Positions 1 to 56,302 of a stretch of 64,000 nucleotides of DNA are shown here, one piece after another. The notes under the pieces were generated by a model, which was not told where the DNA came from, did not search any database, and saw nothing but the letters and a program-made list of their open reading frames with translations. Within the stretch, counting starts at the first letter, position 1; the number at the start of each line of letters is the position of its first letter. Made by a program: the position numbers and the translations under genes. The stretch is from IMG/VR virus record IMGVR_UViG_3300049182_000044, positions 1 through 64,000 of that record; one strand, given 5' to 3'. The DNA is from a virus. Its lineage: Duplodnaviria > Caudoviricetes.

Positions 1-459
1 TTTTCTGGGGTTCAGGGAATTCCATGGCCGGACCTTCAGGCCGGATTTTCCACCAATGTCAGTGCATGTTTTCTCCATGCTGTCGTCCCATTGGTTTCAC
101 TTCGTTCAACCCATCCGTATCTTTTTCCCCTTTTCCTTTTCGCCAATAGCATAATTTTCAATGCCATCACGCGCTGCGAATGTTACTCGTCCTTCCATGA
201 TAAACTGGCCATATGTTCTGGAACTTCAGCCGTTTTGCGTTGTCCATGTCTGCCGGCTTACGCCTTCAGCCATTTGGACAGGCCCCACTTGTAACTGAAG
301 TTTACAGTACGTGTTTTGAATCCCTCAAATTTTGGGTGTCTGACCCCTGGGGACGGTTTTAGCCCTTGAACCCCCGGTAAAAATGCCTCGAAGTGCGGAA
401 AATGCCTTATACTGCCTCGTTCTAGACGACATTTTTTCAAAAATCTTTAAAATCCGAAT

Positions 460-467
460 CTGTAAAG
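460..467 (+). promoter_or_regulatory. Candidate phage promoter CTGTAAAG
   Basis: About 110 nt upstream of ORF 575; a mirror copy on the minus strand lies at 301-308. Confidence 0.4.
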
Positions 468-574
468 GGTACATGAATGCTTTAAAATCAATGAGTTACG
501 ATTGTTAATGTGACAACAAAGATTACACACAATCGCAAGTATGGAAACTGTCGCTGAGCGTAAAAGGGGAAGTA

Positions 575-1711
575 ATGTCAGCAAACGAAGGCCAGGAGAA
601 GGTCAAACGCGAGTACAAGTATCGCAGAAGACCTCCAGTAAGTGAAGAGTCGAAACAGACTCGGAGATACGCCAATGAAGTACGCAGGCTCTATAAAGGA
701 TTTTTTGTCGTGAAAGACTCAGCCACCTATGTGGACGAAAAGACTACACTAGCTCATAGCTGCCTTATTTGCGGCAGCACAGAAGTAGTGAAGCCGAAAA
801 CCGTGTTATCTGGTCGTGGTTGCAGTGAGTGCAAAACCACTGAAGAGCACATGAAGCTGCTAGCCGATCACATACAACGCTTGAAAGAAGTACACGATGG
901 GCAGTTCGAGCTTATAGGATTGCCACCACGCTTTACTGGGGCGAGTAAGGAAATGCACCGCTGTAAGGAATGCACGGGTCAGTTTATTGTGCGTCCCGGG
1001 GCTGTACTAATGCCTGACTTCAAATGCAGCTTCTGCGAGGACAATAAGAATCAAAAGCGCCAAGTACGAGCATATAAGAACAGACTAGAGCTTTTATACG
1101 GTGGGCAGATTCGCTTGACGCACAGATTGAACTTGCACGAGCCTGTGTCATATACTTGCTCTTGTAACGCGCAGCACCCAAGCATGTGGGTTGCGAGTAT
1201 CGAAGAAATGCTTTCGGGTAGCGGATGCCCGAAGTGCGGCAACGCAGTTGCAATGCCTAAGCTTGTGAATCCAGTGATGAAGAGGGGTAAAGGATTCATT
1301 CTACGCCGCTCACTTGAAGCCAAGGCGCTAAATGCAATCTCGGCAGAAGTACCCTCGTTATTGGATGTAGAAACGGCTTTGACTTACCCGATTCCGGTGA
1401 TCGGGAAGAAGCATGTGCCTGCATACTATCTAGTTAAGAAGAACAAGCTGGTTGACGTAACTACGCTAAAGCTCTTTGATGAAGCGCGACCTCGCTATGT
1501 TTCTCGCTATAGGAAAGCGAAAAAGCTAGGATACGAATACGCTCTGATTGTAATTGATGAGAAAAAAGATATTGTGGTGATGTTCAACAGTGAGGAATGG
1601 CTGGCCTCTGCTGACAAGAAGTTGCCGCTCAATTTGAGGGAAGACTTTGTGATCGGCCCTAAGAACGTTCGATGCAAAACGTTCAAAGGCGAGAAGGAAG
1701 GGAAGGTATAG
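575..1711 (+). CDS. Zinc-ribbon-repeat protein of homing-endonuclease type; C-terminal PD-(D/E)xK-like domain appears degenerate
   Basis: Repeated CxxC pairs (CLIC..CSEC, CKEC..CSFC, CSC..CPKC). The C-terminus HVPAYYLVKKNKLVDVTT aligns by eye with YFPDFYRPFSRTVIEVKS of ORF 45173-45982. Confidence 0.6.
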   Translation: MSANEGQEKVKREYKYRRRPPVSEESKQTRRYANEVRRLYKGFFVVKDSATYVDEKTTLAHSCLICGSTEVVKPKTVLSGRGCSECKTTEEHMKLLADHIQRLKEVHDGQFELIGLPPRFTGASKEMHRCKECTGQFIVRPGAVLMPDFKCSFCEDNKNQKRQVRAYKNRLELLYGGQIRLTHRLNLHEPVSYTCSCNAQHPSMWVASIEEMLSGSGCPKCGNAVAMPKLVNPVMKRGKGFILRRSLEAKALNAISAEVPSLLDVETALTYPIPVIGKKHVPAYYLVKKNKLVDVTTLKLFDEARPRYVSRYRKAKKLGYEYALIVIDEKKDIVVMFNSEEWLASADKKLPLNLREDFVIGPKNVRCKTFKGEKEGKV

Positions 1712-1802
1712 AAAAAAGAGTGGTCTGGGAGCCAAAGCGATAAAGGGGATAAATCGCAGCTCACCAGACCACTGAAAAATAAAACTAAGGAGGACTTACA
1801 AA

Positions 1803-1907
1803 ATGAATCAAACGCAAAAATCTAATGCGCAGACACAAGCACGCAGGAACAGTTTCAAACAGCCGAGTAGTGCGATAATGCATCAACATGCCGATGGGCG
1901 CTTATGA
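1803..1907 (+). CDS. Small 34-aa ORF, absent from the ORF track
   Basis: Strong Shine-Dalgarno AAGGAGG just upstream of ATG 1803; MNQTQKSNAQ...GRL then TGA. Confidence 0.45.
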   Translation: MNQTQKSNAQTQARRNSFKQPSSAIMHQHADGRL

Positions 1908-1993
1908 TTGGGAGCATTCGCCTATGACCATCATTCACGTCCTGCGTATTTTGAAATTATGATTTATGCCGTTTCGCGGCACACATCCATCAA

Positions 1994-3058
1994 TCAAATT
2001 CCCAATGCTGCTCTAGCTTCACGCACCAGTGACTTAGCACGCTTCACCTGAGGGTCGTTCATTTCAGACTCTTTCAAATACCTCTTCAAACCAGTTGTGA
2101 TATTGAACTTCGGAAGATCGCGGATCGTCAATTCAGCCGAACGCTCACCTTCTTCCTGCTCCATGTTGACCTTTACTGATTTCGCTGCACCCATCAAGTA
2201 GATGATGTTCGGGAAATCACGCATGATGTTCTTCGGAACAATCACGCCTTCGCCAGTTAGGATCTTGTAGCGAATGTTTTCGTCATGCGTCAATGTATCC
2301 CAATCGTCTGAGCTCTCGATTAACTTCGTCTCGAGCGTGAAGTCAGGATGTGAATTGACGAACTCGTGGTGCACAGACAGCTTACCGCCATTGACGTACT
2401 TCGCCGTGAAGTCCAAAAAGCCTTTCGGCAGCGCTTCACCGAAGTTCTTCTGATACAGTGATCCACAGTAGGCAAATCGTTTCGAGCGCAGGAACTGCTG
2501 TTGATGAATGTGGCCGGAGAAGATGAAGTCACCAGCCTGGCGTTTGAACTTTTCGTCATCACCATGCTTCAACGGACGCCCATTATCACCGATAGCACCT
2601 GCAACCTCGATGTGTGCAAACACCAGCGGTGGCTTAGGTGCCTCAAGCACTTGATTGTGCGGGAACGGCATGAAGCAGCAATTGATACCGTCGATCTTCT
2701 TCAGCGTAGGCTGGTAGAACAAGTGGAAGGTTTTGAAGAACCCACTATCAGCCAACACCTTCAGAACGTCCATCGACGTCTTTGTGGTGTGAGCAACGTC
2801 GTGATTGCCCAGCTGATAGTAGGTATGAATATGACCGTCGTATGTGAGCAGCAACGTGATGATCGAAATCAGCGTGTGCTCGTCCATACGAGGAACGTCG
2901 CTCATGTCTCCAGGAACGAAAACATGGGAGATGCCATGCTCTGCTGCATAGCGGTAGGGTTTGTGAATCTCAGCGATTTGCTTCTCAGTCGGATTGCGAA
3001 AGATTTTCGCCATGCCGTTTAAATGCCAATCGGATGTTACGATTCCTCTGAGTGCCAT
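1994..3058 (-). CDS. sbcD: SbcD/Mre11/gp47-like metallophosphoesterase recombination nuclease
   Basis: Calcineurin-like motifs SDWH, GD, GNHD, FAH, GHIH. Confidence 0.85.
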   Translation of the reverse strand: MALRGIVTSDWHLNGMAKIFRNPTEKQIAEIHKPYRYAAEHGISHVFVPGDMSDVPRMDEHTLISIITLLLTYDGHIHTYYQLGNHDVAHTTKTSMDVLKVLADSGFFKTFHLFYQPTLKKIDGINCCFMPFPHNQVLEAPKPPLVFAHIEVAGAIGDNGRPLKHGDDEKFKRQAGDFIFSGHIHQQQFLRSKRFAYCGSLYQKNFGEALPKGFLDFTAKYVNGGKLSVHHEFVNSHPDFTLETKLIESSDDWDTLTHDENIRYKILTGEGVIVPKNIMRDFPNIIYLMGAAKSVKVNMEQEEGERSAELTIRDLPKFNITTGLKRYLKESEMNDPQVKRAKSLVREARAALGI

Positions 3059-3090
3059 AGTATTCTCTAATGCGTTGATATATGCACTCT

Positions 3091-3098
3091 ATTTACAT
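3091..3098 (-). promoter_or_regulatory. Candidate phage promoter ATGTAAAT
   Basis: 33 nt upstream of sbcD. Confidence 0.55.
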
Positions 3099-3499
3099 TA
3101 TTGCTCGTGCTGACCTCTTGGCGTAATTGAAATGTCGATCAGCTTGAACCAACCTTCGATCTGCAAAGTGTACGCAGTTCGACCCAAGGGCTTCTTGCTA
3201 GGAGGGCCACCCACAGCTTGAGCATTTAGCACTCTACACAATGCCGCAACAAGCTCTTCTACTGAGGCTGCATCCTCTACCCAAGGTACTGCGATAATGT
3301 CGTAGTCACGCGCCTGAGTCCCGTGAACACCTATTGCATACCCATTATCCCTAGCTACTGATCGGATCAGATCAATGGGCGGATTGGCTGGCTCATGCCA
3401 AGCATCTGCTACTGTCCCATCCTTACAGCGAAAACATTCACGCTCGGGCGTCCCATACACTCGGGAGCCATTACAAATAGTACAAGGCTTCTTACTCAT
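3098..3499 (-). CDS. Hypothetical protein with N-terminal CxxC..CxxC and a minimal nucleotidyltransferase-like motif
   Basis: HGTQARDYDIIAVPW resembles GS..xDxD. Start moved to ATG 3499 because of ATGA coupling with the upstream gene. Confidence 0.45.
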   Translation of the reverse strand: MSKKPCTICNGSRVYGTPERECFRCKDGTVADAWHEPANPPIDLIRSVARDNGYAIGVHGTQARDYDIIAVPWVEDAASVEELVAALCRVLNAQAVGGPPSKKPLGRTAYTLQIEGWFKLIDISITPRGQHEQ

Positions 3500-6151: not shown

Positions 6152-7144
6152 TTACCACAAACCCTTTGATTGCTTGACCCGATCCTTCAGGTGTTTCTTG
6201 ATCTGCACGAGCGTCTCTTTCAATTCGTAACGCTTGCACAGCTTCTCGATGCGTTCCACATCAGGATCTTTGAACGCGCAGTTCTCAAGAGTCACCTTGT
6301 GCGGTATGTCGAGCTTGAGCTTAATCAACTTGCGGCCAAGCTTGTGCCACTTCTTCTTTTTCGCAGCTAACAGGTGTTCAACGACGACCGGAGTCTTTTT
6401 CGGCTTCTTGGGCTTTCCGTTCTTGCCCATTTCAGCTTTAGGGATCAGTTCATCAATACGAGCAAGCAGTTCTTTCAGCGTGCCGAATTGATTCAACCAT
6501 CCAGCAGCGGTCTTCGGACCGACCTTATCAACGCCTGGGATGTTATCGACCTTATCGCCAAGCAGCGTGAGGTAGTCGACGATCTGATCGGGACGTACGC
6601 CGTATTCAACACGAATGCCTGCCGGATCGAGTAGCTCACGTTCCTTTGCGGTCACAATGTTGACGTTCTTCGTCACCAGCTGTGCCATATCCTTATCGTT
6701 CGTGGAGATCAATACCTCGCAGCCTTGCGCTTCAAACTCAGTGGCCAACGTGCCCATGAAGTCGTCGGCCTCAACGCCCTTCTTACCCAGCAGACGGAAG
6801 CCCATCGCCTTCAGTATCTGGCGAATTGGCTTGAACTGCTGTTTGACCTTCTCGTAGTCGTCTGTCTCTTTCGACTTGACTCGCGACTCGGAGCGCTTGT
6901 ACTCTGGATACACTTCCGAACGCCAGCTAGTGCGGCCACCCTTATCAAAGATTACCACGACACGATCAGGCTTCAGCTCATTGATATCCTTGAGGATGAT
7001 GTTCAACGTGCCTTTGATTGCGTTCGTCGGGAAACCTTCTTTGGTGGTCAACGGCTCGACCGCCCAATAGCCGCGGTGTACGTAATTATTTCCGTCCACT
7101 AAAAGGACGCGCAGCCGTTTGATCTTCTTTTCTTTCTTAGCCAT
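6152..7144 (-). CDS. 5'-3' exonuclease / flap endonuclease (PolI N-terminal, T4 RNase H family)
   Basis: LLVDGNNY, FD, YK, EADD, STNDKD, LGDKVDNIPGV helix-hairpin-helix. Confidence 0.92.
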   Translation of the reverse strand: MAKKEKKIKRLRVLLVDGNNYVHRGYWAVEPLTTKEGFPTNAIKGTLNIILKDINELKPDRVVVIFDKGGRTSWRSEVYPEYKRSESRVKSKETDDYEKVKQQFKPIRQILKAMGFRLLGKKGVEADDFMGTLATEFEAQGCEVLISTNDKDMAQLVTKNVNIVTAKERELLDPAGIRVEYGVRPDQIVDYLTLLGDKVDNIPGVDKVGPKTAAGWLNQFGTLKELLARIDELIPKAEMGKNGKPKKPKKTPVVVEHLLAAKKKKWHKLGRKLIKLKLDIPHKVTLENCAFKDPDVERIEKLCKRYELKETLVQIKKHLKDRVKQSKGLW

Positions 7145-8193: not shown

Positions 8194-8501
8194 CACACTT
8201 CCTCCACTCTGAGAACAACCCGCTCGATTGCAGAACCATTGCGCACACAATGCCCTTTAAGCTCGAACTTGTCACCGATTTTACGCTGCATCATCAGTCG
8301 CTGGAACGTTGCTGCTACAAGTTGATCCTTATCCAGAACCTTTTTGTCTTGTACCGATGCAACGTTGTCCAGCTCTTTGAGAATGTCGCTCTTGAAAATG
8401 ATTCGCTCGCGGAAGCTAGCGTTCATCCCGCTTTTGAAGCGATCACTGATCTTGTAGGCTGTATCAAACAGCACTTCATCCGCGTCGAATTTACTGTCCA
8501 T
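8193..8501 (-). CDS. Hypothetical protein
   Basis: 102-aa ORF coupled on both sides. Confidence 0.65.
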   Translation of the reverse strand: MDSKFDADEVLFDTAYKISDRFKSGMNASFRERIIFKSDILKELDNVASVQDKKVLDKDQLVAATFQRLMMQRKIGDKFELKGHCVRNGSAIERVVLRVEEV

Positions 8502-9590: not shown

Positions 9591-9616
9591 GTTATTGGTC
9601 TCCCTATACAATGTAT

Positions 9617-9624
9617 ATTTACAG
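9617..9624 (-). promoter_or_regulatory. Candidate phage promoter CTGTAAAT
   Basis: 27 nt upstream of ORF 9590. Confidence 0.55.
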
Positions 9625-9627
9625 ATA

Positions 9628-9849
9628 TTACGTGGATAAAAAGCTTGAAGAGTACACCACAACTGCATCACATTGCCCAGGAATTTTATGATTACCCAGT
9701 GAAAGGGCTTGGTCGAGAACGACATGCTGATTGTACGTGCGATACTGACGCCAAAACAGCAATCCAAATAATCCCACAGTGCAGATTAGGCCGGATAACA
9801 ACATGACGTTGCCCAGCCTAAACGAACTAGATACGATGTTAGGTTGCAT
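9628..9849 (-). CDS. Possible small membrane protein
   Basis: Hydrophobic stretch VMLLSGLICTVGLFGLLFW followed by basic residues; start uncertain. Confidence 0.35.
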   Translation of the reverse strand: MQPNIVSSSFRLGNVMLLSGLICTVGLFGLLFWRQYRTYNQHVVLDQALSLGNHKIPGQCDAVVVYSSSFLST

Positions 9850-9904
9850 GATGGTCTCCAAACGTAGACACATCAAATTACAGTACGCGACGCACAAATG
9901 AAAA

Positions 9905-9934
9905 TGGCCGGTGCAGCTTTCGCCGCACCGGCCA
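9905..9934 (-). terminator. Intrinsic terminator after recA
   Basis: 10-bp perfect stem TGGCCGGTGC/GCACCGGCCA followed by TTTT on the minus strand. Confidence 0.8.
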
Positions 9935-9939
9935 CTCGA

Positions 9940-13405: not shown

Positions 13406-13464
13406 TTTGTGTTCCTTAGTTGTAGTAACTCTTTGTTAAGGGTGACTGATAACGTCAATAATGC

Positions 13465-13472
13465 ATTTACAG
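13465..13472 (-). promoter_or_regulatory. Candidate phage promoter CTGTAAAT
   Basis: 60 nt upstream of ssb. Confidence 0.6.
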
Positions 13473-13483
13473 TATTGACGCAG

Positions 13484-13588: not shown

Positions 13589-13757
13589 ACGTCCACTGGC
13601 CAATGCCCATTGCATTCACAAACTTGCGCTGGACTTGACGCAGCCACACCAGGTGGTACGTATGCCCTTGCGGACCTTTCTTGACGGCTACGACCGGATG
13701 CCACGCAAACCACTTGTGTGCATTGACTCGATCAGCTTTGAGTTGGATGCTTGCCAT
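13575..13757 (-). CDS. Hypothetical protein
   Basis: 60-aa ORF with a GAGG RBS; WFAWHPV motif. Confidence 0.6.
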   Translation of the reverse strand: MASIQLKADRVNAHKWFAWHPVVAVKKGPQGHTYHLVWLRQVQRKFVNAMGIGQWTYEIA

Positions 13758-14892
13758 TTTTCTTCAACCTCTTTTTCGGCTTGACTGCCGGAGTTTTTAA
13801 TAACTGCTGCTCCCTCATGGTCTTACGCATAAGACGCAGCTCCTTCTTTGAAAACACTTCGTCAATATCGAGATACAGACGAGCTAAACTACGAATGTCG
13901 GCACACTTAGCAAGATACCGGACAACCTCCATCTCTTGGCGTTGCTCCAGCTTTACCTCTGCACCCACATCACCAACAATGTAATCCTGAAGTGACGTTG
14001 CACCGTCTTCACCACTATCAGAACTAACAAGCTTGTCCAGACTGACACTAAAGTTCACGTCTCCACTTGAGTTCGTACCTTGTGCCATCTGCTTACGCTG
14101 CATTTGCGGAATGGAATAGGCGATACCGTATTCGTGGCCATGATCCGTATTGGAACACGTCTGAGCGTTCAGTACCCAGTAATTGATGTACGATGTAAGA
14201 GCACCTTTCGTGCAATCGTACTTGTCAACGGCCTTGGTAATCGCAGTCAGGAAGTTATGATACACATCCTTGAAGTCGAAGTTTTCACCCTTCATCTTGC
14301 AGAAGGCCTTCGCTTGTTTGTACGCCAGCTTCACATAGTTGCTGACGATAGAATTTCGGAACTCGTAAGCAAGCTCCAGGTAGTCTTGCGCGATGTTGAT
14401 TGTGGAGAACAACCGACTGCGCGAGTTACCTACGTTCTGCTCCAACGCCCTGAGCTTCATATCGAGCATGATACGTTCATGCCCAGTTGCAAGTAAGTAG
14501 CGTTGATAAAGCTCTGCGTAGCCTTCAGTCTCTTTCAAGAACTTGACTACGAAGTTGTAGACGAAACCACGCTCGATCTTTGAGTTGGTCAGGATGTGAA
14601 TCTTCTTGTCCCGATCATCTGTAATCAAACAGTGGCACAGTGAGGTCATGAACTCCTCACGCGGAAGCGCTGAGAGCTTCCGTTTGCGATTTCTCGCTGT
14701 CAGACCGAGTAAGTACACGATCTGAACATCAAACACGTCGCTAGTCTTTACCAGCGGTGCCAGAGATTCGTAGATAAGGAAGTCCAACACTTCCTGAATC
14801 TGTCCCCCTGTTAAATTGCTGGTCAAGTCCGCGTTCGTCGCCTTCGCTAGCTCTTCCGCTAGTGCTGGCTCTTTTGTTTTGCGGGCTTTCAT
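13732..14892 (-). CDS. Phage-encoded sigma70-family RNA polymerase sigma factor
   Basis: YVKLAYKQAK..KDVYHNFLTAITKAVDKYDCTKGALTSYINYWV matches region 2. VSLDKLV..DGATSLQDYI matches region 3. No clear region 4. Confidence 0.75.
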   Translation of the reverse strand: MKARKTKEPALAEELAKATNADLTSNLTGGQIQEVLDFLIYESLAPLVKTSDVFDVQIVYLLGLTARNRKRKLSALPREEFMTSLCHCLITDDRDKKIHILTNSKIERGFVYNFVVKFLKETEGYAELYQRYLLATGHERIMLDMKLRALEQNVGNSRSRLFSTINIAQDYLELAYEFRNSIVSNYVKLAYKQAKAFCKMKGENFDFKDVYHNFLTAITKAVDKYDCTKGALTSYINYWVLNAQTCSNTDHGHEYGIAYSIPQMQRKQMAQGTNSSGDVNFSVSLDKLVSSDSGEDGATSLQDYIVGDVGAEVKLEQRQEMEVVRYLAKCADIRSLARLYLDIDEVFSKKELRLMRKTMREQQLLKTPAVKPKKRLKKNGKHPTQS

Positions 14893-15076
14893 CTGTGGTA
14901 CCTTCGCCGTTTAGGATTCTTTGGGCAGACTCTATACGTCTCTCCCGTGCCTCATTCATCGCTTTCATTCTCTGAGGGCGATCCATTGTGTTCCAACTCT
15001 CAACGTCTTCTTTAGAGCGGAAACACGTAGTGCACGTTTGCGTCTGCACATCCATTTTACAGATACGTGTACACAT
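14741..15076 (-). CDS. DUF1289-like small Cys protein
   Basis: CTRICKMD..CTTCFRSKEDVESWNTM; GGAG RBS before ATG 15076. The 3' end overlaps the sigma gene. Confidence 0.55.
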   Translation of the reverse strand: MCTRICKMDVQTQTCTTCFRSKEDVESWNTMDRPQRMKAMNEARERRIESAQRILNGEGTTDESPQNKRASTSGRASEGDERGLDQQFNRGTDSGSVGLPYLRISGTAGKD

Positions 15077-23886: not shown

Positions 23887-23937
23887 GAATTAACCCCTTT
23901 ACTTCACGGATGGATATGCGGTGTAATTATGTCCAAC

Positions 23938-23945
23938 ATTTACAG
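23938..23945 (-). promoter_or_regulatory. Candidate phage promoter CTGTAAAT
   Basis: 52 nt upstream of dpdA, at the head of the modification operon. Confidence 0.6.
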
Positions 23946-23947
23946 TT

Positions 23948-24889
23948 TTACTGTTTGGGTAGTCTCATGCCAGGCGGCCTATCAAACCAAGTCAACTTGA
24001 GAAACTCCTTTAATTGCCGTGGATTGAAGCATAGATGGCCCTTTGAAAGAGGGCATGGTGTGTACGAGTCGTAGTGCTCCTTGTAGAACTCGTAGGAATC
24101 ACAGGGCTTCTGCGCCACAATGTCCATGAGCCCTTTGAACGTCGTAACCGCCAGCACTTCATCCCATTGACGATCCCACTTCTTGATCTTCTTGAGATAC
24201 CGAGCCTTCTCCTTCTTTGAGATAGGCTTACCTGTTGCGTACACTACGTCCATAGGACTGTCACGCGAAACATACATCAAGATCCATCCACTGATCTTAA
24301 TGTCGAACATCAACTCGATCAATGCGCAGTACGCCCTGATCTGTGCCACGTTGTGATGGTACGGGAGCATCCCGTGAGACTTCTGAGATTGAATGATTCG
24401 TGCGGAGCTCGTCTTATAGTCGATGACGTAGTACTCTCCGTTCTTGGAGCGCCATATGCCATCCAAATGGCCAGACACATTCTTGAATGCCTTGACGGTA
24501 AGTTCTTCATAGTTCATTCGCCCTTTGCAGATCGGGCACTTGTTCTTTCTCGATATGGCGCGGAAGCCCTTGCAGCCCGGCGTCCGGCATTTCCACTGAC
24601 CGTAAATCTGACCGGCCCGACCCATCCAATCCTGCATAAGCTCGTGAGCTACCGTCCCGACCTCCACGTAATAGCGACCGCTCATGTCAATGTCTTTCTT
24701 AACGTGGGCGGTCATCTGCTTGTAAGCATGCTTCAGCGGGCAGTATGGGAATCCAGATACACGTAACCGTTCTTCGTGAGTCCGCTCGTCTTCTACTTGA
24801 GTGGCTACGGCATCTAGATAGTATTGTTTGAATTCTTTTAGCACTCCCGCCATGTTCACGGTGGCGAATGCAGGTAAATGTCGTGCCAT
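23948..24889 (-). CDS. Cas4/RecB-like PD-(D/E)xK exonuclease
   Basis: YCPLK, GTVAH, GHLDG, IDYKT, QIRAY and a C-terminal Cys cluster; extra CxxxxC..CPIC insert. Confidence 0.8.
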   Translation of the reverse strand: MARHLPAFATVNMAGVLKEFKQYYLDAVATQVEDERTHEERLRVSGFPYCPLKHAYKQMTAHVKKDIDMSGRYYVEVGTVAHELMQDWMGRAGQIYGQWKCRTPGCKGFRAISRKNKCPICKGRMNYEELTVKAFKNVSGHLDGIWRSKNGEYYVIDYKTSSARIIQSQKSHGMLPYHHNVAQIRAYCALIELMFDIKISGWILMYVSRDSPMDVVYATGKPISKKEKARYLKKIKKWDRQWDEVLAVTTFKGLMDIVAQKPCDSYEFYKEHYDSYTPCPLSKGHLCFNPRQLKEFLKLTWFDRPPGMRLPKQ

Positions 24890-24906
24890 TTTTTTAGGCC
24901 TCAGAA

Positions 24907-24914
24907 CTGTAAAT
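24907..24914 (+). promoter_or_regulatory. Candidate phage promoter CTGTAAAT
   Basis: 45 nt upstream of ORF 24959; a divergent TGTAAAA at 24936-24942 points into the Cas4-like gene. Confidence 0.6.
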
Positions 24915-24958
24915 AACGCATATACATTAACATCTTTTTACACATTCTGGAGGGTCAA

Positions 24959-30518: not shown

Positions 30519-30595
30519 GTTGTTCTCCTTTCACCCACATTACAAAAGACAACCTTGAATTTGAACACCTACAGATTGCCTCTCGAATACAATGT

Positions 30596-30603
30596 CTTTA
30601 CAG
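30596..30603 (-). promoter_or_regulatory. Candidate phage promoter CTGTAAAG
   Basis: About 78 nt upstream of the ruvC-like gene. Confidence 0.45.
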
Positions 30604-30657
30604 TATCTGAGTGGCAATTTTCGTAATTTCCTTGTATCAACCACATGGGAATTCATC

Positions 30658-34631: not shown

Positions 34632-34741
34632 TCTGTCCAAAAACGGGCCTTATTGGTGCTCCGTATGTCTGCGGTTTTGCAAGCGAAAATGTAATTTGAA
34701 TGTATAGTTTCAACAAATACCAGCATCTATAAGGTCCTATA

Positions 34742-40092: not shown

Positions 40093-40196
40093 TAGTTGCA
40101 GAACCAAGCAAAACATCGTAATTTTCATGCATAGGAAAGCGCATCCTATTAAACATCCTATGCATAGTAAACTCAATCCTTATAAGGAGCAAGAAA

Positions 40197-48588: not shown

Positions 48589-48721
48589 AAGGCATCACCA
48601 TGGCTGTACCCAAGACACTTAACTCATGACGACGTATGGGCTCCCTCGAAAGACGGAGCCTGTCCTCGTTTATGCGCCAATAAATATAATTTAAAGTATC
48701 GAACCACTAAGAGGATTCCTT

Positions 48722-49573
48722 ATGGATGCCCAGGCAATCACAGGGCGTATGTTGACCTCGCTGAGTGCAGACAAGCACACTATGATCCGGCATTACTTGT
48801 TAGCCTTCGGGATCACTAATGCCGGCAGCGATAAACTTCCGCCCGTATTCAAAGAGAAGCACCAGCCAGAATGGGAAGCGTTCACACGCGAGTTTGAGCT
48901 GAGCGTTCCTCGTGCAACGAAAGAGAAGATCGCCCTGTACCGCGTACTGGAGTTTGTGCGCTACATGAAACATATGGGCATCAACCCATTCCAAGGAGCG
49001 TTTAAGCATCCTGCTGAAGCGAAGATTGCTAGCAAGGGTGTCGATCCGGTCAAGGTGTACGAGAAGCTGCTTGAATCGAGTATGTTCGACGTTGCGCGGT
49101 CGATTTCGAGACTGGCTCACAAGACGCATTTGCTTTTGCAGATGAAGATCGCGAAGTCAGTGTCAGATGTGAAGGCGAAGAACGGGCAGTATGTTCTTAC
49201 AACAGCGTTCATTCTTAAACCTCAACGCAAAGATGACACTTTGGACGGGGTCTTGACAAACATGCGTGGTCTGTTGTATAATGACAGTAAAGTGCCAGTT
49301 CAACTCACTGAGCGCAAGCAAGCCCTGCCAAAGACCTCCCGCGCAAAACCCAAGATTCAAAATAGCAAAGCTGAAGTGCTGCTCCGAAGCGAATCCTTCA
49401 TGGGATGGTATCCGCTGTCCAAGAACGATCACTTCGTTGCGTACTTGATCCGCGCACGGGAAGACCTGCTTGTGTTCAAAGTCAAAGTGGCACTTGATGT
49501 AGACGTAAACCTAGGCTCTTCTACCAAGCAGACAATCATGCGTCTTTGGACGAAGGCGTTTAAATCAATTTAA
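48722..49573 (+). CDS. Putative head protein (LTSLSA)
   Basis: GAGGA RBS; SLSA at residues 13-16. Confidence 0.55.
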   Translation: MDAQAITGRMLTSLSADKHTMIRHYLLAFGITNAGSDKLPPVFKEKHQPEWEAFTREFELSVPRATKEKIALYRVLEFVRYMKHMGINPFQGAFKHPAEAKIASKGVDPVKVYEKLLESSMFDVARSISRLAHKTHLLLQMKIAKSVSDVKAKNGQYVLTTAFILKPQRKDDTLDGVLTNMRGLLYNDSKVPVQLTERKQALPKTSRAKPKIQNSKAEVLLRSESFMGWYPLSKNDHFVAYLIRAREDLLVFKVKVALDVDVNLGSSTKQTIMRLWTKAFKSI

Positions 49574-49580
49574 TGTAAAT
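49573..49580 (+). promoter_or_regulatory. Candidate phage promoter ATGTAAAT
   Basis: 22 nt upstream of the 49602/SNF2 unit. Confidence 0.5.
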
Positions 49581-49601
49581 CGAAGGAAATGGGCATTCAC
49601 C

Positions 49602-50045
49602 ATGAATGAGAAAATCAGAAGTACCATCGAAAAGATCTCGGCTCTTTCGTTTAACGCTCGCGTGATCGCTGATCGCCTCGGGGTTAAGGGTTCGGCCAAA
49701 CAGGTATCTACCAGTGCGGGTGTCGAGGACGTTAATACGCTCAAGGATCAGATCATTACGCTCAACAAAGAAGTCGATGCATTGCGCGACCTCATTGATG
49801 ACGAGCATGATGCAGTCTTCACCGACGAACAGGCAAGCACATTCACCGCGGCTTTCGAGAAGAGCCTCGCTGATTTGCCGCATGTGGTCATCAGCTCGGT
49901 GTACACAGCAGAATACTTGAAGGCAAACCCGCGTAACATTCGTTACCTGATCTGCCTGACTCTGGTGAACACGTTCACCACTCGCAACCTTGTGCCGATG
50001 CCTTTGTGGTACACGGTCATCGCAAACAACGGTTCTCTTAATTAA
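49602..50045 (+). CDS. Hypothetical protein
   Basis: 147-aa ORF directly upstream of the SNF2 gene. Confidence 0.65.
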   Translation: MNEKIRSTIEKISALSFNARVIADRLGVKGSAKQVSTSAGVEDVNTLKDQIITLNKEVDALRDLIDDEHDAVFTDEQASTFTAAFEKSLADLPHVVISSVYTAEYLKANPRNIRYLICLTLVNTFTTRNLVPMPLWYTVIANNGSLN

Positions 50046-50057: not shown

Positions 50058-53000
50058 ATGAACAACAGTTCCATTCATGAGGCAAGTGCTCTCGGCAATG
50101 CACTCGAGGGCGGTGAAGGCATGACTCCTCTGGAGCGTGCTCAGACTTCACTCTCGAACACTTCGTTCGAGGCGTTGTTGCCTATTCAGCTCGATCCGGA
50201 TTCACAAGTTGCAAAGGACTACGACCAGGTATTCTACCCGCGTCGTAAGCCGCTGAAAGGTGCGTTCACCAATCGCGGTATGTATCCTGAACTGGCGAAA
50301 TACCTCGCCGAAGTCAGCGGCTATCTCAATGCGGTGTTCAGCCAAGCTCGTTACCTGCTCAGTGAAGCACCTCTGCTGGCTACGATGCCGAAAGATGCGA
50401 CGATGGCGATGACCACTCGCCACCTCGATACGGTCATCAAACGCATCGACAAAGACAACATCAACATCGCGCAAAAGGCGTTCATCGAATCCGTTAGCAG
50501 CGGTAAGGCTCACATCATCAAGCCGTCCAACCGTTACAAGAACGGCTTCGATGTGATCTACAGTGGCTTGCCGACGTTTGGTGGTGCGAAGGGTACCGCG
50601 ATCTCTCTGCAGCCCGGTGCCGGTGGCATCAATCACGCTTTGCCGGAAAGCACTCGTGACGCAGGCTGGCGTGGTATGCGTGAAGAAGGCGGCTCGTTGA
50701 CACTCGAAATAGGCAAGCGTTCGCTCACTATGTGCCGCGAACTCATTACCGACCTCTTCGAGGACGCAAACATCGGTACGCTGGCCACCGCGCACAATCG
50801 TCACACGAAGATCCTCCCGCTTGACTTTGACTTCCGTAAGGTTGTTGGTGATGCGGTTGATGCAATGAAGGGCCTTGGCGTTGACATGCGCCCTCTCGCA
50901 GACATCCCGAAGGTGGACCCGCTGCTGTTCAAAGGTCTCGGTAAGTACTTCTCTATCGTAGCCATCTACGAAGCCAACCACAACATCGTTCGCAAGCGTT
51001 TGATCGACGAAACCCAAACGCCTGAGAACTACAACATGAACGAGGACTTCCTCGCGATGCAGCCGAACATCGGCTTCTCTATCGTGATGCACCTCCCGCA
51101 GGAAATCGTTTCGTTCATCACCCAGACGAAGCCGAGTGATCGCGTTCCTCTCGCAGCACTCAATACCTGGGTGTCTGCATGGTCGCGCGCTCTGTTGAAG
51201 ATTCCGAAAGCGAAGGCCAAGAAGGGCGAGCGTGTTACCGTTATGGGCAGCCCGCGATATGTCCTGCCTGCATCGACAACAACTGCACTGATCGAGCGTC
51301 GTAAGCAGCTGGGCTTCTTCACTGAGGAAGGTCGTACTAACGAAGACAACCTCTATGTGTCGAATGTCGGTACGTTGAACTTCTGCCCGAAGTCGTCTGA
51401 TCTGGCGATGGAGAACGCTCGCAATTACGAGCGCCTGCTGGAGGAAGCACTTCAGTTGTCTTTCGACGCGGGTACTCCGCTCAATGCTTCTCAGATGGGT
51501 GAAACGAATCCGGTATTCGGCCTCGTGCATCCTGAATATCGTGAGAAGATTGCAGGCTTGAAGTCGCAACTCAAGCGTTACGCCGGTGCTGTGCAGACCT
51601 ACAGCTGGGATTACAACTGCATTCTGACCAGTGCTATGAGTGACCCGGACAAGCTGATCGCTACCAATCTGGCCGGTGCTGCAAAGCCTGATGAACTGTC
51701 CGTCGCAGATTACCTGCGTAAGCCGTTCGCACAGTCTATGATGCTTCTGTTCCCCGACTCGAAGGCAGACGTAGTTGACGAATCGGATCCGATGAAGAAG
51801 GTCACTGCTGACGGCAAGACCGAAAGCAAGACCAAGCCGGCTACGATGGCCACTTACGGTCACGGCGGTTCTGCCACTCCGATGCTGCGTACCTCGGTGT
51901 TTCAGAACGCGAAGAAGCTGTACACCTACCTGCTTCAAGACAAAGCTGTACCTTCATTTCAAGAGCTGGTCGATAAAGCTGCTCAAGACCTAAACGTCAA
52001 GAACTTGGAGACAGACGAGCACGTAGCACCGTATGAGAAGAATCTTTTCAACGGCCTGCTCACAGCGGATCTGAAGGTGTCTCCTGTACTTAATCCGGCA
52101 ACGTCCTCTCCTCAGCGTCAAGTTGACGCGATCTGGACGATGCTGGAACGAGCTATTCGTGACTCTTCCGGCTTTCCTGGCTCGAATCTGGCGCGGCATT
52201 GTTATGCAACTGGTGAGAACATCGACGAGAACGATCACTTCTTCAACCCGGAGCATTTCACACTGGCCGAGTTCAAGAACGTCTACAAGTATTTCGGTGG
52301 GCGTATTTTCTACCATGCGATGCAGGCACTGGCGCATGCTGATCGCAAGAAGCTGATGGTGATCAACCTCGAAAACCCGCAGCCGCAAGTGAACTTCACT
52401 GCACTCGTGAACGAGGTAATACCGCTTGCTGTCATGCTCAGCAAGTACGTCCCGCAGTCGGAACAGATCTACACGAAGGCAGACGAACTGGCAGAGAAGA
52501 ACAAGCGCAACACTTCGATCACGGCTGATGACATCCATGTGCCGGGCTCGAAAGGTCCGAATGCTCAAACAGGCGATCCGGGCTTCCAATTGTTCCCGCA
52601 CCAGATCGAAAGTCACCAATACCTGCGTAATGCTCCTCGCTTCGCTGTGCTGGACATTGCACCGGGCGGTGGTAAGACCATTGCAGTTCTGTCTGATATT
52701 GCGAACTTGGTTCGTGATAAGAAGTGCACGAAGCCGTTGATCGCATGCCCGAATGGCCTGGTACGTAACTGGGTTGAGGACATGCACAAGATCACCCAGG
52801 GCAAGTGGAATATCATCCCGATCACCACTTCAATCTATCGTACCTGGGGTGACGAGCGTCTGACCAAGATGATTCACAATGCACCGCGAAACACTATCGT
52901 GGTCGTCGGCTTGTCAGTTCTCAAGCTGCAGAAGTATCCGGTCGTTATCGGCAATCACGTTGAAGTCGTCTCCGGTACGCTGGAGTTCATCAAGAAGTTC

Positions 53001-55832
53001 GGCTTCGACTACGTTGCACTGGACGAATCGCATCGCGTTAAGAACCCGAAGACTGCTGTCCACAAAGCTGTTAAGCAATTGTGTACCGCATCGTCGGTCA
53101 AGTACATTCGTTTGGCCACTGGTACGCTGATCTCGAACAAGCTGACAGACGTAGTTGGTCAGGCAGCGATGTTCTCGTCGCAGATTTTCCGTACACCGGA
53201 AGAGTACGAAGCAGCGAACAGCGAACAGATCGGCGACACTAAGGTGTGGACGTGGAAGAAAGAGACGCCGCGTCTTGCGCGTGAACAGTTGTCGCGCCAC
53301 TCAGCAGTCATTACGTTCAAGCGTAAAGAGTGGGCATTCATGCTCCCAGTACCGAAAGAGAAGTTCATCGCGGTTGCCCTTAGCAAGTCTGAGAAGGAAG
53401 GCGGCGATGCTCACCAGCTGATGTACGATGCAATTCTCAAGCAGACCCTCGAGGAGTTGAAGAAGGACGAGGACGTCATGAAGTTGCTGAAAGGCGATGA
53501 TGACGACGAGAATGGTGACGACGACGAGAACGGTGACGAAGACAACGGGCCGTTGATGCCTGAAGACCTCGATGATGCCACGATGGCTGAACTTGAAATG
53601 TCGCTGCGCCCGTACTTGCAGCGTCTAGAGATGATGCTTGTCGATCCGTTGGGCGACCCGTTCGGTGAAGTGTACTTCAAGGGCATGAAGCGCGGTGACT
53701 TTGTCTCCAATAAGGTGCTGAGGGTTATCGAGCGTATCAAGCTCAACTTCATTGACTTCCATTGGGAGAAGGGCAAGGTATACAGCAAGAAGGGTGTTGA
53801 CGAACAAGGCAACGACCTCGACCTGTGTGACTTCAATGGCAAGCGTTATGCGTTGATGCCGCCACCCAATGTCAATCCTCTGGATCGTGAAGCGTACTAT
53901 GCACCGTACAAGTCGATCATTGAGCCGGACAAGGATCCACGTTGGAAGGAAGAGCCTCGTGGTAAGGTCATTGTGTTCTGCCGCTACACCCGTTCGGTGA
54001 ATGCGATCTTCCATGCACTTGAGCAGTTGAGTCCTACACTCGCTAAGATGGCAGTACGCTTCCACGGCGAGATCAAGGACAAGTGGGCCAACCTCGATGC
54101 GTTCAAGTCTACGCCTATCAGCAAGAACAAAGGCGTACAGATCCTGATCGCAAACGAGCAAGCTATCTCTGAAGGCCACAACCTGCAGATGGCATCCCGC
54201 TTGATTCGTGTTGAATCGCCCTGGGCACCAGGTGAGCTCGATCAGTCGTCTGCTCGTATCTTCCGTCCTGATCCGACTGGGGCATTCACACGCGAAAACG
54301 TGTACCTTGATTGGGTGATGGCGAACGGTTCGATGGAAGTCGCTAAGATGGGTCGTTTGATCTCGAAGATGCTGACGAAAGCTCAGTTCGACGAGGCCGG
54401 CAATCCACTGTACGAAGCTCTCAACGAGTATCAGTTGGCACCGATTTCGATGTCGCTGGAGACAATCGCATCGACGCCGCTGCTGTCTGATATTGAGGAG
54501 TACACCAGCGCATACGGCGACCTCGCAAGTATCATGAGTTCAGAGTTCCGTGAGATGCGTGCTACGCGTCCTGCGAAGATGTTCTCTATCGAGCCGGAGC
54601 CGATGCTGGAAGATGCGAAGATCATCGACTACGTACCGTATGTCCCGAACATGCGTGTGCCGGATCGTAACAACTTCGGTCTGATTGCATTGCCTGAGTT
54701 CTTGCAAGACACGGAGAACGAAGAAGCAGTCGAGATCCTTAGCGACCCGAAGAAGTTGATCGGTATGTATGCACATACTGAAATGGGTAATGGTACGATC
54801 ACGAATGTAACGTTCCGTACCAGCAAGGATAATCCGAATGCCCCGAAGCGTATCATTCGTGTTGAGGTAACGCTTGCAGGCAGCGAAGAGAAGTACGAAG
54901 GTGACCCGTCAATGATTCACATGGCGACAAACCTGACCGCTGAAACAATCAAGAACTTCCAAGTCAAAGCCAAGGTCGCGACGAAGAAGGACAAGGAACG
55001 TGCTGAGAAGTTGCGCAAGAAGGCAGCATTGAAGGCGGAAAAGGAAGCAAAAAAGATCGCACGGCAGAAGAAGCGTGAGAAGGAATCGCTTAAGAAGCTG
55101 AAGGAGATCGAGAAGCTGAAGGACAAGAAGGGCAAGGTGTCGGCACCTAAAAAACCAAAGGTTGAAGAGCCTGAGGAAGACGAGGATGATGATGTTGAAG
55201 ATAACACCAGCGTCGAGCTTTACCCGGTTGTGTACAACGGCTTCCTCGCACTCGAAGCGATTCCTGAAGACGAAGACCTGAATCTGAAGAAGTATGGGTT
55301 TAAGCCTTTCGGCGATTATGCGTACATTGGTATCAAGGACTATGTGACGTTCGATGCGGTAATGAAAGCGCTCACGAAGAAATTCAAGATCGCCAAACCC
55401 GTGTTGAAGCGCTTGGAGTTGCTGCACGATTCGTTCCAGACGGGTCGTGGCCGCAAGTTCGACGTTGCACAAGCACCGATCAGCGAGTTCAAGAACTTCT
55501 ACCGACTGAGCCACACAATGGCTAAGAAGGATGAAGAGACTGGTAAGGTCGAACTCAAGATCTATCCGGTCATCATGAACGGCCAGTTGATGCTGACAGT
55601 AGACTTGGCGACCAACCCGATTGTTCGCAAACTCCTGAACAAGACGATTCCGAAGTCCAAGTCCAAGTTCCAATTGGCGCATGGACTCGATGTGCAGTTC
55701 TTTAAGTCCAAGGCTGAAATGAAAACCGTCTTCAAGAAGATGGTGGCCGGCGGCATCGAGATCACGAATCGTAAAGAGTACGAGAAGGAGTTCGAGGCTC
55801 TCAAGCTGAAGCAGGACAAGGTCAAGAAGTAA
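50058..55832 (+). CDS. Giant SNF2/SWI2-family helicase-like ATPase (DarB-like)
   Basis: Walker A APGGGKT, LDESH, ATGT, HG.I, SEGHNLQ, PWAPGELDQSSARIFR. Confidence 0.85.
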   Translation: MNNSSIHEASALGNALEGGEGMTPLERAQTSLSNTSFEALLPIQLDPDSQVAKDYDQVFYPRRKPLKGAFTNRGMYPELAKYLAEVSGYLNAVFSQARYLLSEAPLLATMPKDATMAMTTRHLDTVIKRIDKDNINIAQKAFIESVSSGKAHIIKPSNRYKNGFDVIYSGLPTFGGAKGTAISLQPGAGGINHALPESTRDAGWRGMREEGGSLTLEIGKRSLTMCRELITDLFEDANIGTLATAHNRHTKILPLDFDFRKVVGDAVDAMKGLGVDMRPLADIPKVDPLLFKGLGKYFSIVAIYEANHNIVRKRLIDETQTPENYNMNEDFLAMQPNIGFSIVMHLPQEIVSFITQTKPSDRVPLAALNTWVSAWSRALLKIPKAKAKKGERVTVMGSPRYVLPASTTTALIERRKQLGFFTEEGRTNEDNLYVSNVGTLNFCPKSSDLAMENARNYERLLEEALQLSFDAGTPLNASQMGETNPVFGLVHPEYREKIAGLKSQLKRYAGAVQTYSWDYNCILTSAMSDPDKLIATNLAGAAKPDELSVADYLRKPFAQSMMLLFPDSKADVVDESDPMKKVTADGKTESKTKPATMATYGHGGSATPMLRTSVFQNAKKLYTYLLQDKAVPSFQELVDKAAQDLNVKNLETDEHVAPYEKNLFNGLLTADLKVSPVLNPATSSPQRQVDAIWTMLERAIRDSSGFPGSNLARHCYATGENIDENDHFFNPEHFTLAEFKNVYKYFGGRIFYHAMQALAHADRKKLMVINLENPQPQVNFTALVNEVIPLAVMLSKYVPQSEQIYTKADELAEKNKRNTSITADDIHVPGSKGPNAQTGDPGFQLFPHQIESHQYLRNAPRFAVLDIAPGGGKTIAVLSDIANLVRDKKCTKPLIACPNGLVRNWVEDMHKITQGKWNIIPITTSIYRTWGDERLTKMIHNAPRNTIVVVGLSVLKLQKYPVVIGNHVEVVSGTLEFIKKFGFDYVALDESHRVKNPKTAVHKAVKQLCTASSVKYIRLATGTLISNKLTDVVGQAAMFSSQIFRTPEEYEAANSEQIGDTKVWTWKKETPRLAREQLSRHSAVITFKRKEWAFMLPVPKEKFIAVALSKSEKEGGDAHQLMYDAILKQTLEELKKDEDVMKLLKGDDDDENGDDDENGDEDNGPLMPEDLDDATMAELEMSLRPYLQRLEMMLVDPLGDPFGEVYFKGMKRGDFVSNKVLRVIERIKLNFIDFHWEKGKVYSKKGVDEQGNDLDLCDFNGKRYALMPPPNVNPLDREAYYAPYKSIIEPDKDPRWKEEPRGKVIVFCRYTRSVNAIFHALEQLSPTLAKMAVRFHGEIKDKWANLDAFKSTPISKNKGVQILIANEQAISEGHNLQMASRLIRVESPWAPGELDQSSARIFRPDPTGAFTRENVYLDWVMANGSMEVAKMGRLISKMLTKAQFDEAGNPLYEALNEYQLAPISMSLETIASTPLLSDIEEYTSAYGDLASIMSSEFREMRATRPAKMFSIEPEPMLEDAKIIDYVPYVPNMRVPDRNNFGLIALPEFLQDTENEEAVEILSDPKKLIGMYAHTEMGNGTITNVTFRTSKDNPNAPKRIIRVEVTLAGSEEKYEGDPSMIHMATNLTAETIKNFQVKAKVATKKDKERAEKLRKKAALKAEKEAKKIARQKKREKESLKKLKEIEKLKDKKGKVSAPKKPKVEEPEEDEDDDVEDNTSVELYPVVYNGFLALEAIPEDEDLNLKKYGFKPFGDYAYIGIKDYVTFDAVMKALTKKFKIAKPVLKRLELLHDSFQTGRGRKFDVAQAPISEFKNFYRLSHTMAKKDEETGKVELKIYPVIMNGQLMLTVDLATNPIVRKLLNKTIPKSKSKFQLAHGLDVQFFKSKAEMKTVFKKMVAGGIEITNRKEYEKEFEALKLKQDKVKK

Positions 55833-55841
55833 TTGAAGCAC

Positions 55842-55863
55842 GCCACGGCCTTCGGGTCGTGGC
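55842..55863 (+). terminator. cUUCGg hairpin after the SNF2 gene
   Basis: GCCACGGCC-TTCG-GGTCGTGGC; weak U-tract. Confidence 0.55.
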
Positions 55864-55881
55864 TCTAACGGAGAATCCATC

Positions 55882-56217
55882 ATGCAAGTCACTAAGTCAC
55901 AACTGGAACGTCAACAGTTGATCCTCAAAGCCCTCGGTTTCTACTTCGGTAAGCTGGACGGCATTTGGGGCCCTATGTCAATTGAGGCGAAGAAGAAGTA
56001 CGAAGCCGATGCTTCGTTCCGTCCAGGGATCCCGAACAACGGTATGCCTTTCGGTGAGCGTCCGCCTTATCCGGCAGGCATCACTCTCGATCATGCAACT
56101 GGCCTTCTGCATCATCCGCGGATCGATCTGCATACTCTTCCTACCGCAGCGCCTCAGCCTTCTGAGGAAGAGCTGGAGCAACTTACCGCTCCTGACACGG
56201 ACACAGGCAACGAGTAA
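55882..56217 (+). CDS. Peptidoglycan-binding-domain protein
   Basis: QLILKALGFY.G.LDGIWGP.S..A (PG_binding_1 pattern). Confidence 0.7.
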   Translation: MQVTKSQLERQQLILKALGFYFGKLDGIWGPMSIEAKKKYEADASFRPGIPNNGMPFGERPPYPAGITLDHATGLLHHPRIDLHTLPTAAPQPSEEELEQLTAPDTDTGNE

Positions 56218-56235
56218 TCCTCTATCCCACCACCC

Positions 56236-56258
56236 AAAGGCGGCCTCGTGTCGCCTTT
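56236..56258 (+). terminator. Hairpin terminator
   Basis: AAAGGCGGC-CTCGT-GTCGCCTTT. Confidence 0.6.
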
Positions 56259-56294
56259 CCTCACCTTTAGGCTCTCTTCGCCCCAAACGCAAAA

Positions 56295-56302
56295 CTGTAA
56301 AT
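56295..56302 (+). promoter_or_regulatory. Candidate phage promoter CTGTAAAT
   Basis: 35 nt upstream of polA, just after a terminator. Confidence 0.6.

Follow-up and report, generated by a model that had tools for sequence, protein, structure and literature searches.

We analysed bases 1–64,000 (the window) of a 281,566-bp Caudoviricetes record in IMG/VR (IMGVR_UViG_3300049182_000044), which has a G+C content of 51% and is rated complete by CheckV, and focused on an oriented intergenic element built around TGTAAAT and on a sigma-factor gene, here called sigma1. A soil metagenome, probably the source of the phage genome, is the sole sequencing run found to contain it; no RNA run was listed as containing it, and a 7-kb piece of the window, searched against a phage collection at the nucleotide level, matched no record. 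By protein similarity, the nearest relatives are the jumbo phages Lu11, PaBG, Erwinia Y3/Alexandra and Dickeya JA11/JA29, whose sigma proteins are 37–40% identical to sigma1 and which keep its sigma-SSB-RecA gene order; we place the phage in the Lu11/PaBG/Y3 jumbo-phage lineage. No RNA polymerase gene was noticed in the window, where no search was aimed at one, and members of this lineage are described as having none, so that the phage is expected to rely on the host core polymerase. For jumbo phages of this kind, the usual view is that phage sigma factors redirect the host enzyme. Genes were called with a codon-usage model and gap filling, giving 389 genes that cover 91% of the genome and leaving 8.7% of the whole genome and 9.5% of the window as non-coding. 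Two motif classes, A (aAAAC-TG-TAAAT-a) and B (ATcg-TAATTT-a), were scored with class-specific position weight matrices (PWM) at a threshold of 9.

The class A motif is concentrated in the gaps between genes and faces them. MTGTAAAT (M, A or C) occurs eight times in the window against 2.75 ± 1.8 in shuffles, and eight copies were reached in 1 of 100 shuffles. Non-coding DNA holds seven of the eight (binomial P = 5e-7), and all seven aim into the next gene from 22–92 nt ahead of its called start. An earlier note on this DNA had listed these seven, and each is present at its position, namely 3091(-), 9617(-), 13465(-), 23938(-), 24907(+), 49573(+) and 56295(+); the eighth, at 29032(+) within a coding region, was absent from its list. 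In an unbiased k-mer count of gaps against genes over the whole genome, TGTAAA, CTGTAAA and ACTGTAAA rank first among the intergenic-enriched words. Genome-wide, 24 of 43 CTGTAAA copies are intergenic (P = 5e-15), and 21 of the 22 that lie between same-strand genes are in sense orientation (P = 1e-5), so the motif is neither equally frequent in coding DNA nor equally common in either direction. Many of the nominally coding CTGTAAA copies are located at gene junctions.

The class A consensus is one block with an A conserved 7 nt after it, and its information content of 14–19 bits makes it the strongest and best conserved motif, above class B. Upstream of both classes, only terminator remnants were found where a second, -35-like block was sought. 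The A at 7 nt is the only consistent downstream feature in four genomes; the TATA-like tetramer described earlier amounts to just a weak g.A / GTA signal. With the conserved A as +1, class A is read as TG at -14/-13 followed by TAAATA at -12 to -7. It does not fit an extended -10 sigma-70 promoter (TGnTATAAT, with TG at -15/-14 and T at -7), as its TG lies at -14/-13 and its -7 base is A or G. Judged from their sequences, class A and class B both resemble sigma-70-family promoter elements that consist of a -10 block only, and the motifs of both classes are very likely promoters. The proposal that the TGTAAAT element would behave like a phage-specific -10-only promoter is thus borne out by its orientation, by its position 20–110 nt before starts and by its retention before orthologues in distant relatives.

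It is very improbable that class A is instead an RNA- or DNA-level signal (processing, part of a terminator, replication or packaging) or a stop-codon by-product of the form CTG-TAA-A. The motif's TAA does double as the upstream gene's stop codon at 6 of the 43 CTGTAAA sites, but it is not used as a stop at the other 37. Divergent pairs point outward on both strands (24902(+)/24927(-) and 30587(-)/30616(+)), the motif stands before genes and not after them with its conserved A at a promoter-like spacing, distinct T-rich terminator words precede it, and it is kept before orthologues though the flanking sequence has diverged. On the other side, no start-site or expression data were found for this phage or its relatives, so that "promoter" is a positional inference, and the gene starts come from our own crude gene caller.

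The class A word recurs in relatives at similar positions. In Lu11, which we re-analysed, CTGTAAAT has 48 copies genome-wide, 46 of them sense or co-oriented. The same word has 27 intergenic copies in Y3 (1.8 expected) and 11 in PaBG (0.6 expected), while TGTAAAT has 17 in Xanthomonas phage PhiXhv-15 (0.2 expected) and 27 in Vibrio phage GR7B (1.5 expected); in all five genomes the motif ranks first or nearly first among the intergenic words. The element in the window has the features of a Lu11-type class A promoter: the core CTGTAAAT, an A-rich 5' flank, intergenic and co-oriented placement, and retention before orthologues. The Lu11 genome was reportedly described by Adriaenssens et al. in 2012. 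Its GenBank record (JQ768459) carries 16-nt features labelled "putative middle/late promoter" that read aaaaCTGTAAAT-N5-GTA, and the class A motif is therefore not new. Lu11 and the window's phage share the core aaaaCTGTAAAT with GTA about 5 nt on, the intergenic and gene-oriented placement, and the motif positions relative to the orthologous SSB, DNA polymerase and SbcD-like nuclease genes. They differ in that the Lu11 authors assigned a single "middle/late" class, whereas a separate TAATTT motif stands at virion genes both here and in re-analysed Lu11. The sigma proteins are only about 37% identical, and about 73 reciprocal-best-hit genes are common to the two phages, whose promoter sets are both predicted from sequence.

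TAATTT is the second oriented intergenic word and is present and co-oriented in every genome examined. Its context in the window's genome is aaATcgTAATTTa. Over the whole genome, 24 of 55 TAATTT copies are intergenic (P = 5e-12) and 20 of 22 are in sense orientation, usually 20–50 nt upstream of a start codon. With the conserved purine 7 positions past the hexamer as +1, TAATTT would occupy -12 to -7. The near-match at 34689 (ATGTAATT), previously taken as a TGTAAAT variant, belongs to this class; its 22-mer scores higher with the class A matrix than with the class B matrix (Table 1), and the class B label was assigned from the TAATTT core. At genome position 229342, between divergent-looking sites, the palindromic core CGTAATTACG gives GTTAATCGTAATTACGTGTTTC a class B score on both strands.

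The two classes divide the annotated genes by function. According to PHROG and Pfam matches, class A lies upstream of the SbcD-like phosphoesterase, two exonucleases, RecA/UvsX, SSB, the sigma gene, the PD-(D/E)XK nuclease, the primase, the Holliday-junction resolvase, the 1924-aa helicase, DNA polymerase, a second helicase, a polymerase subunit, NAD-dependent ligase, the topoisomerase II large subunit, the clamp loader and a unit that ends with ManC. Class B lies upstream of two tail-sheath paralogues, two fibre proteins, a baseplate wedge protein, a virion structural protein, a structural-module ATPase and genes around the head-tail connector. None of the annotated virion genes has class A as its nearest promoter-like site, and none of the annotated replication genes has class B alone. 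Promoter class is also kept between reciprocal-best-hit orthologues (Fisher P of 3e-5 to 4e-4 for class A and 1e-6 to 0.02 for class B), with just 0–2 class switches in each genome comparison. The earlier expectation that the TGTAAAT regulon includes replication and modification genes therefore agrees with the map, as class A heads replication, recombination and DNA-modification genes; its extension to late genes does not, as virion genes are preceded by the separate ATcgTAATTTa motif.

Near-consensus sigma-70 promoters are few in the whole genome (nine intergenic, eight of them co-oriented). Perfect 12/12 TTGACA-17-TATAAT sites at genome positions 235933(-) and 264962(-), in a small-gene region at 231–265 kb, are likely early promoters, and they may point to a host whose sigma-70 has E. 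coli-like specificity. Taken together, the expression programme looks like an early phase served by host sigma-70, a middle phase by class A and a late phase by class B. The present analysis adds three points: a split into two classes that follows gene function, the conservation of this split between the Lu11 group and phages of Xanthomonas and Vibrio, and a conserved location of the sigma gene within class A units; in the literature, which we covered incompletely, no paper was found on the class A motif, the two-class split or the class A position of the sigma gene. The two-motif map of one uncultured phage and five relatives, with its clean replication/virion split and orthologue-conserved placement, corrects the idea of one motif for all non-early genes and turns a vague "middle/late promoter" label into a testable model for cultured relatives. 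It can serve both annotation and the design of phage expression systems, and it is unsurprising in kind.

Table 1. Promoter-like sites and associated genes in the window, in order of position (PWM scores refer to the class named).
Feature	Sequence	Position	Strand	PWM score	Context
Class A	CGAATCTGTAAAGGGTACATGA	455..476 (460 in the earlier note)	+	19.0	About 107 nt before ORF (open reading frame) 575-1711, HNH endonuclease-like (PHROG)
Class A at 3091	ATGTAAAT	3082..3103	-	22.4	Before SbcD-like metallophosphatase gene 1994-3058 (Pfam Metallophos)
Class A at 9617	CTGTAAAT	9608..9629	-	16.6	Heads unit from 9590 to exonuclease genes 8501-9295 and 6152-7144 (PHROG)
Weak class A variant	ATGTAAAA	11839..11846	-	Below threshold 9	40 nt before RecA/UvsX-like gene, likely ATG 11799 (Pfam, PHROG)
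Class A at 13465	CTGTAAAT	13456..13477	-	16.7	60 nt before SSB gene 11882-13405
sigma1 gene		13732..14892	-		Region 1.2, non-conserved region and region 2, residues ~7-254; linker 248-307; tail 311-361
Class A	CGTATCTGTAAAATGGATGTGC	15046..15067	-	14.2	About 160 nt before sigma gene start
Class A at 23938	CTGTAAAT	23929..23950	-	21.3	Heads unit from 23886 to 18000; last gene ManC (GDP-mannose synthesis; ManC domains)
Class A at 24907	CTGTAAAT	24902..24923	+	18.9	Heads unit from 24959 to primase-like 25695-26732 (PHROG DNA primase)
Class A variant	GTGTAAAA	24927..24948	-	15.0	46 nt before PD-(D/E)XK nuclease-like ORF 23948-24889 (Pfam PDDEXK_1); divergent from 24902 site
Class A at 30596	CTGTAAAG	30587..30608	-	22.1	Before Holliday-junction resolvase gene 29988-30518 (PHROG)
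Class B	AATTTTCGTAATTTCCTTGTAT	30616..30637	+	18.0	20 nt before gene 30658-31767
Class B (label from core)	CGAAAATGTAATTTGAATGTAT	34684..34705	+	15.9 (class B); 17.8 (class A) on the same 22-mer	Core TAATTT at 34692; before gene 34742-36142
Class B	AAACATCGTAATTTTCATGCAT	40111..40132	+	20.8	Before gene 40197-41069
Class A at 42812	CTGTAAAA	42807..42828	+	21.1	Before gene 42885-43679
Class B	AATAAATATAATTTAAAGTATC	48679..48700	+	18.5	Before gene 48722-49573
Class A at 49573	ATGTAAAT	49568..49589	+	16.1	Before 49602-50045 and 1924-aa helicase gene 50058-55832 (PHROG DNA helicase)
Class A at 56295	CTGTAAAT	56290..56311	+	20.1	Before DNA polymerase ORF 56325-59420, likely ATG 56337 (PHROG)
Sliding-clamp-like gene		61555..62754	+		phrog_947 processivity factor, E = 2.7e-15; within polymerase transcription unit

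Several of the sites in Table 1 have counterparts before orthologous genes. The SbcD-like gene and the DNA polymerase gene have class A upstream in Lu11, Y3 and PaBG as well, the SSB orthologue has it in Lu11 and PaBG, and the sigma-SSB gap carries CTGTAAA also in Lu11, Y3 and JA11; for class B, the orthologue of gene 30658-31767 is likewise preceded by the motif in Lu11, Y3 and PaBG. The genes upstream of the class B site at 40111 (37405-40092) have PHROG head-tail connector and baseplate matches. The near-matches in the earlier note all exist as strings. That at 460(+) lies about 107 nt, and those at 11839(-), 24936(-), 30596(-) and 42812(+) lie 40–78 nt, before starts; the one at 301(-) aims at no identified gene and faces the end of the record, and the one at 11839 scores poorly.

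Sigma1 is a genuine sigma-70-family protein without a recognisable region 4, as far as sequence profiles and a predicted structure can tell. The 386-aa protein matches phrog_17569 "RNA polymerase sigma factor" at E = 3e-98. Its own match to Pfam Sigma70_r2 is weak (E = 8e-4, under the curated cut-off), although the same profile matches all 36 aligned homologues, at best with E = 2.3e-7. More than 200 homologues of sigma1 were seen on long metagenomic contigs. Pfam regions 3 and 4 (Sigma70_r4 and r4_2 for region 4) match none of the 36 at E <= 1, and a Pfam scan of the whole genome found one region 2 match and zero region 4 matches. The AlphaFold model (mean predicted local distance difference test score 73) is confident for a helical domain (residues 26-245) and shows disorder at 248-307 and three C-terminal helices at 311-361. 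Model residues 7-254 superpose on sigma-70 residues ~95-450 with Z of 12-15.7 and a root-mean-square deviation of 3.6-4.5 over 220-236 residues, a span that comprises region 1.2, the non-conserved region and region 2. Y235, W239 and N242 are invariant or nearly so and fall in region 2.3-2.4 at the positions of the -10-melting aromatics; we take their sigma-70 counterparts to be Y430, W434 and Q437. The earlier description of this protein as having sigma-70 regions 2-3 only thus stands for region 2 and for the lack of a recognisable region 4; region 3 is undetected by Pfam, and an IPxxQKK stretch that resembles region 3.0 is its sole basis. Without a recognisable region 4, sigma1 could serve -10-only promoters only, and as a sigma factor it would bind host core RNA polymerase. 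The family is already annotated as "RpoD-like" in PaBG and others. PaBG gp118 ("RpoD subfamily sigma-70", phrog_17569) is the sigma1 orthologue, with 39% identity and the same sigma-SSB-RecA synteny; the PaBG paper assigns its function from HHpred only and names no promoter or missing regions (PMC7412058).

The conserved sigma1 tail (ADIxGLARLYLDIDExFSxKExRxM, three helices, ~55 residues) is too short to hold region 3 plus region 4 and could be a very divergent region 4 remnant. Its profile gave chance matches only against PDB sequences. Fold searches with the C-terminal model found nothing below E = 5 with Foldseek against the PDB and a best Z of 4 VIA-wide; the model is of low confidence, so the absent sigma-4 fold match is not informative. 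Many sigma1 homologues end in QLG(L/Y/F/I)xP (alignment columns 401-415), which resembles the beta-clamp-binding QLxLF. A family clamp-binding motif QLG(L/Y/F)xP was considered and rejected, since several members, including the window's protein, do not have it. A co-fold of the C-terminal 131 residues with the clamp at 61555-62754 scored 0.00, which counts neither way, and no link between this clamp and sigma1 was found.

The position of the sigma1 gene bears on which class it reads. The gene lies downstream of class A in seven genomes, those of the window's phage, Lu11, Y3, JA11, PaBG, PhiXhv-15 and GR7B. The distance from class A to the sigma1 start is ~160 nt in the window's genome and 41 nt in Y3 and JA11 (CTGTAAA), and the gene is inside class-A-headed operons in Lu11, PaBG, PhiXhv-15 and GR7B. 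Within 4-6 kb upstream of sigma1, five of the six genomes scanned have no sigma-70-type site of at least 10/12. To our knowledge, every characterised phage sigma factor (T4 gp55; SPO1 gp28 and gp33/34) comes from the promoter class that precedes the one it reads. If sigma1 is made from class A and the same logic holds, it should read the late class B, and if it read TGTAAAT, the first sigma1 molecules would have no obvious source. We accordingly favour, at slightly less than an even chance, that sigma1 reads class B.

Several observations weigh against this pairing, the argument for which is one of regulatory logic only. GR7B carries a 10/12 sigma-70-like site 3.6 kb upstream of sigma1, in an AT-rich genome with many sigma-70-type sites of at least 10/12. 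The window has two same-strand 9/12 sigma-70-like sites 1-2 kb upstream of sigma1, where the density of such sites around the gene is no higher than in shuffles. The first sigma1 could also come from read-through, from weak undetected early promoters or from injected protein. Moreover, TGTAAATA of class A agrees with the T4 gp55 late promoter TATAAATA at seven of eight positions, which fits the pairing in the earlier note.

That pairing, in which sigma1 itself reads class A TGTAAAT as gp55 reads its promoter, including positive autoregulation, while another factor such as the gp112-like protein described below reads class B, seems unlikely to us. Besides the T4 match, it is favoured by class A being the strongest and best conserved motif, by the lack of a -35 block, as would befit a sigma that has no recognisable region 4, by the place of IPxxQKK at region 3.0, which in our reading contacts the TG of extended -10 promoters, and by the co-occurrence of the sigma gene and class A in six of six genomes examined. 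This co-occurrence is equally true of class B and the gp112-like gene, however, and both the position of sigma1 behind class A and the origin of characterised phage sigmas in the preceding class speak against it. With the sigma1 gene, the gp112-like gene and both motifs present in all six genomes, distribution cannot separate the pairings, which also counts against the preferred one. In PhiXhv-15, a tblastn search had suggested a genome with sigma1 and without the gp112-like gene; this was overturned by a hidden Markov model match (E = 6e-20), and the CTAATTT motif is there too.

It is improbable that sigma1 reads both classes, with timing set by a co-activator, by DNA replication or modification, or by an anti-sigma acting on host sigma-70. 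The classes do share T-12, A-11 and a purine at +1, as TAnnnN hexamers with equal start-site spacing, the genome holds only one Pfam-recognisable sigma, and some regulatory regions, such as that at genome 221152-221517, have both motifs in tandem. Yet the motifs are unlike at most positions (TG-TAAATA against cg-TAATTT), and each class is conserved separately across very divergent genomes with almost no switching, which suggests two distinct readers.

The candidate second reader is a gp112-like protein. The homologue of PaBG gp112 is encoded at genome 216699-217892(-) (E = 2e-39; phrog_19229, function unannotated), and a weak HHpred sigma match of PaBG gp112 has been reported by Evseev et al. 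(PMC7412058). Among the language-model neighbours of the gp112-like protein, 32 of 100 are viral Sigma70_r2 clusters. A central stretch of the protein, DLxxEL...NYLKR...N..NII, resembles a sigma region 2 that has diverged strongly. Against this, Pfam, PDB phmmer and PDB profile searches gave no match, and hhalign against the sigma1 family gave a probability of 0.2%; the protein as a sigma is a lead only, which our own searches do not confirm. The 366-nt region at genome 221152-221517(-) carries in tandem TTGACA-17-TGaTATACT, then aaaaCTGTAAATA, then gaTAATTTA, and the unit behind it encodes a 669-aa protein, an HNH protein, a topoisomerase, the gp112-like protein and DnaB. Elsewhere the gp112-like unit has a 12/12 sigma-70 promoter in GR7B and 10/12 sites in Y3 and PaBG.

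To return to the preferred reading, the best overall explanation, to which we give an even chance, is that two promoter classes form a cascade from host sigma-70 to class A to class B. In such a cascade, host sigma-70 would read the early promoters, and an early product would let RNA polymerase read class A; a candidate is the gp112-like protein, whose unit begins at a sigma-70-type promoter. Sigma1 would then be produced from a class A promoter and would take the part of T4 gp55 by reading the late promoters of class B. A more specific and somewhat doubtful version extends a three-step programme to the whole RNA-polymerase-less jumbo-phage clade (Pseudomonas, Erwinia, Dickeya, Xanthomonas, Vibrio and soil), in which the gp112-like protein would read aaaCTGTAAAT and the region-4-less, RpoD-derived sigma would read cgTAATTTa. 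If true, a gp55-like solution would have been reached from a full-length RpoD ancestor.

Comparison with known systems shows both likenesses and differences. In T4, late transcription uses the gp55 sigma at TATAAATA promoters with the gp33 co-activator and the gp45 sliding clamp. Both phages have -10-only promoters without a -35 element, a phage sigma without a recognisable region 4 encoded among replication genes, and a phage sliding clamp. In contrast to the minimal gp55 of ~185 aa, sigma1 has 386 aa with region 1.2 and the non-conserved region; no gp55 family match to sigma1 was found in Pfam (Sigma70_r2 only) or PHROGs (phrog_17569 and phrog_351 only), and the TGTAAAT class here serves replication genes and not late genes. 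A further difference is that the clamp here is of the bacterial beta type according to the PaBG paper (PMC7412058). The proposed logic, in which each class would be read by a factor from the preceding class, resembles that of SPO1 (host sigma-A, then gp28, then gp33/34), and three sequence classes (sigma-70-like, A and B) and two phage sigma-like candidates are proposed here in the same way. The two systems are unrelated in sequence, and for the second factor there is only a candidate here. In SPO1, the middle and late promoters are built of -35 plus -10 parts, whereas those of the window's phage are single-block.

Other features of the genome accompany these sites. The three genes in 32037-36142(+) (301, 343 and 466 aa) have the top codon-usage scores of the window, a strongly positive AT skew and class B sites upstream; they have no Pfam or PHROG match and are likely abundant virion proteins. 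A near-consensus TTGACA-17-TATACT at 42062-42090(+) stands before gene 42176-42799 within an otherwise late-looking block. Class A sites at 78385, 78597, 79459, 79711, 88387 and 89879 fall in a stretch at 78-90 kb of the genome with few callable real ORFs. Opposite the real RecA/UvsX and SSB genes lie antisense ORFs at 9898-12117(+) and 11336-13396(+) (739 and 686 aa) with strongly negative AT skew, which are probably a codon-bias artefact, though their length is unusual.

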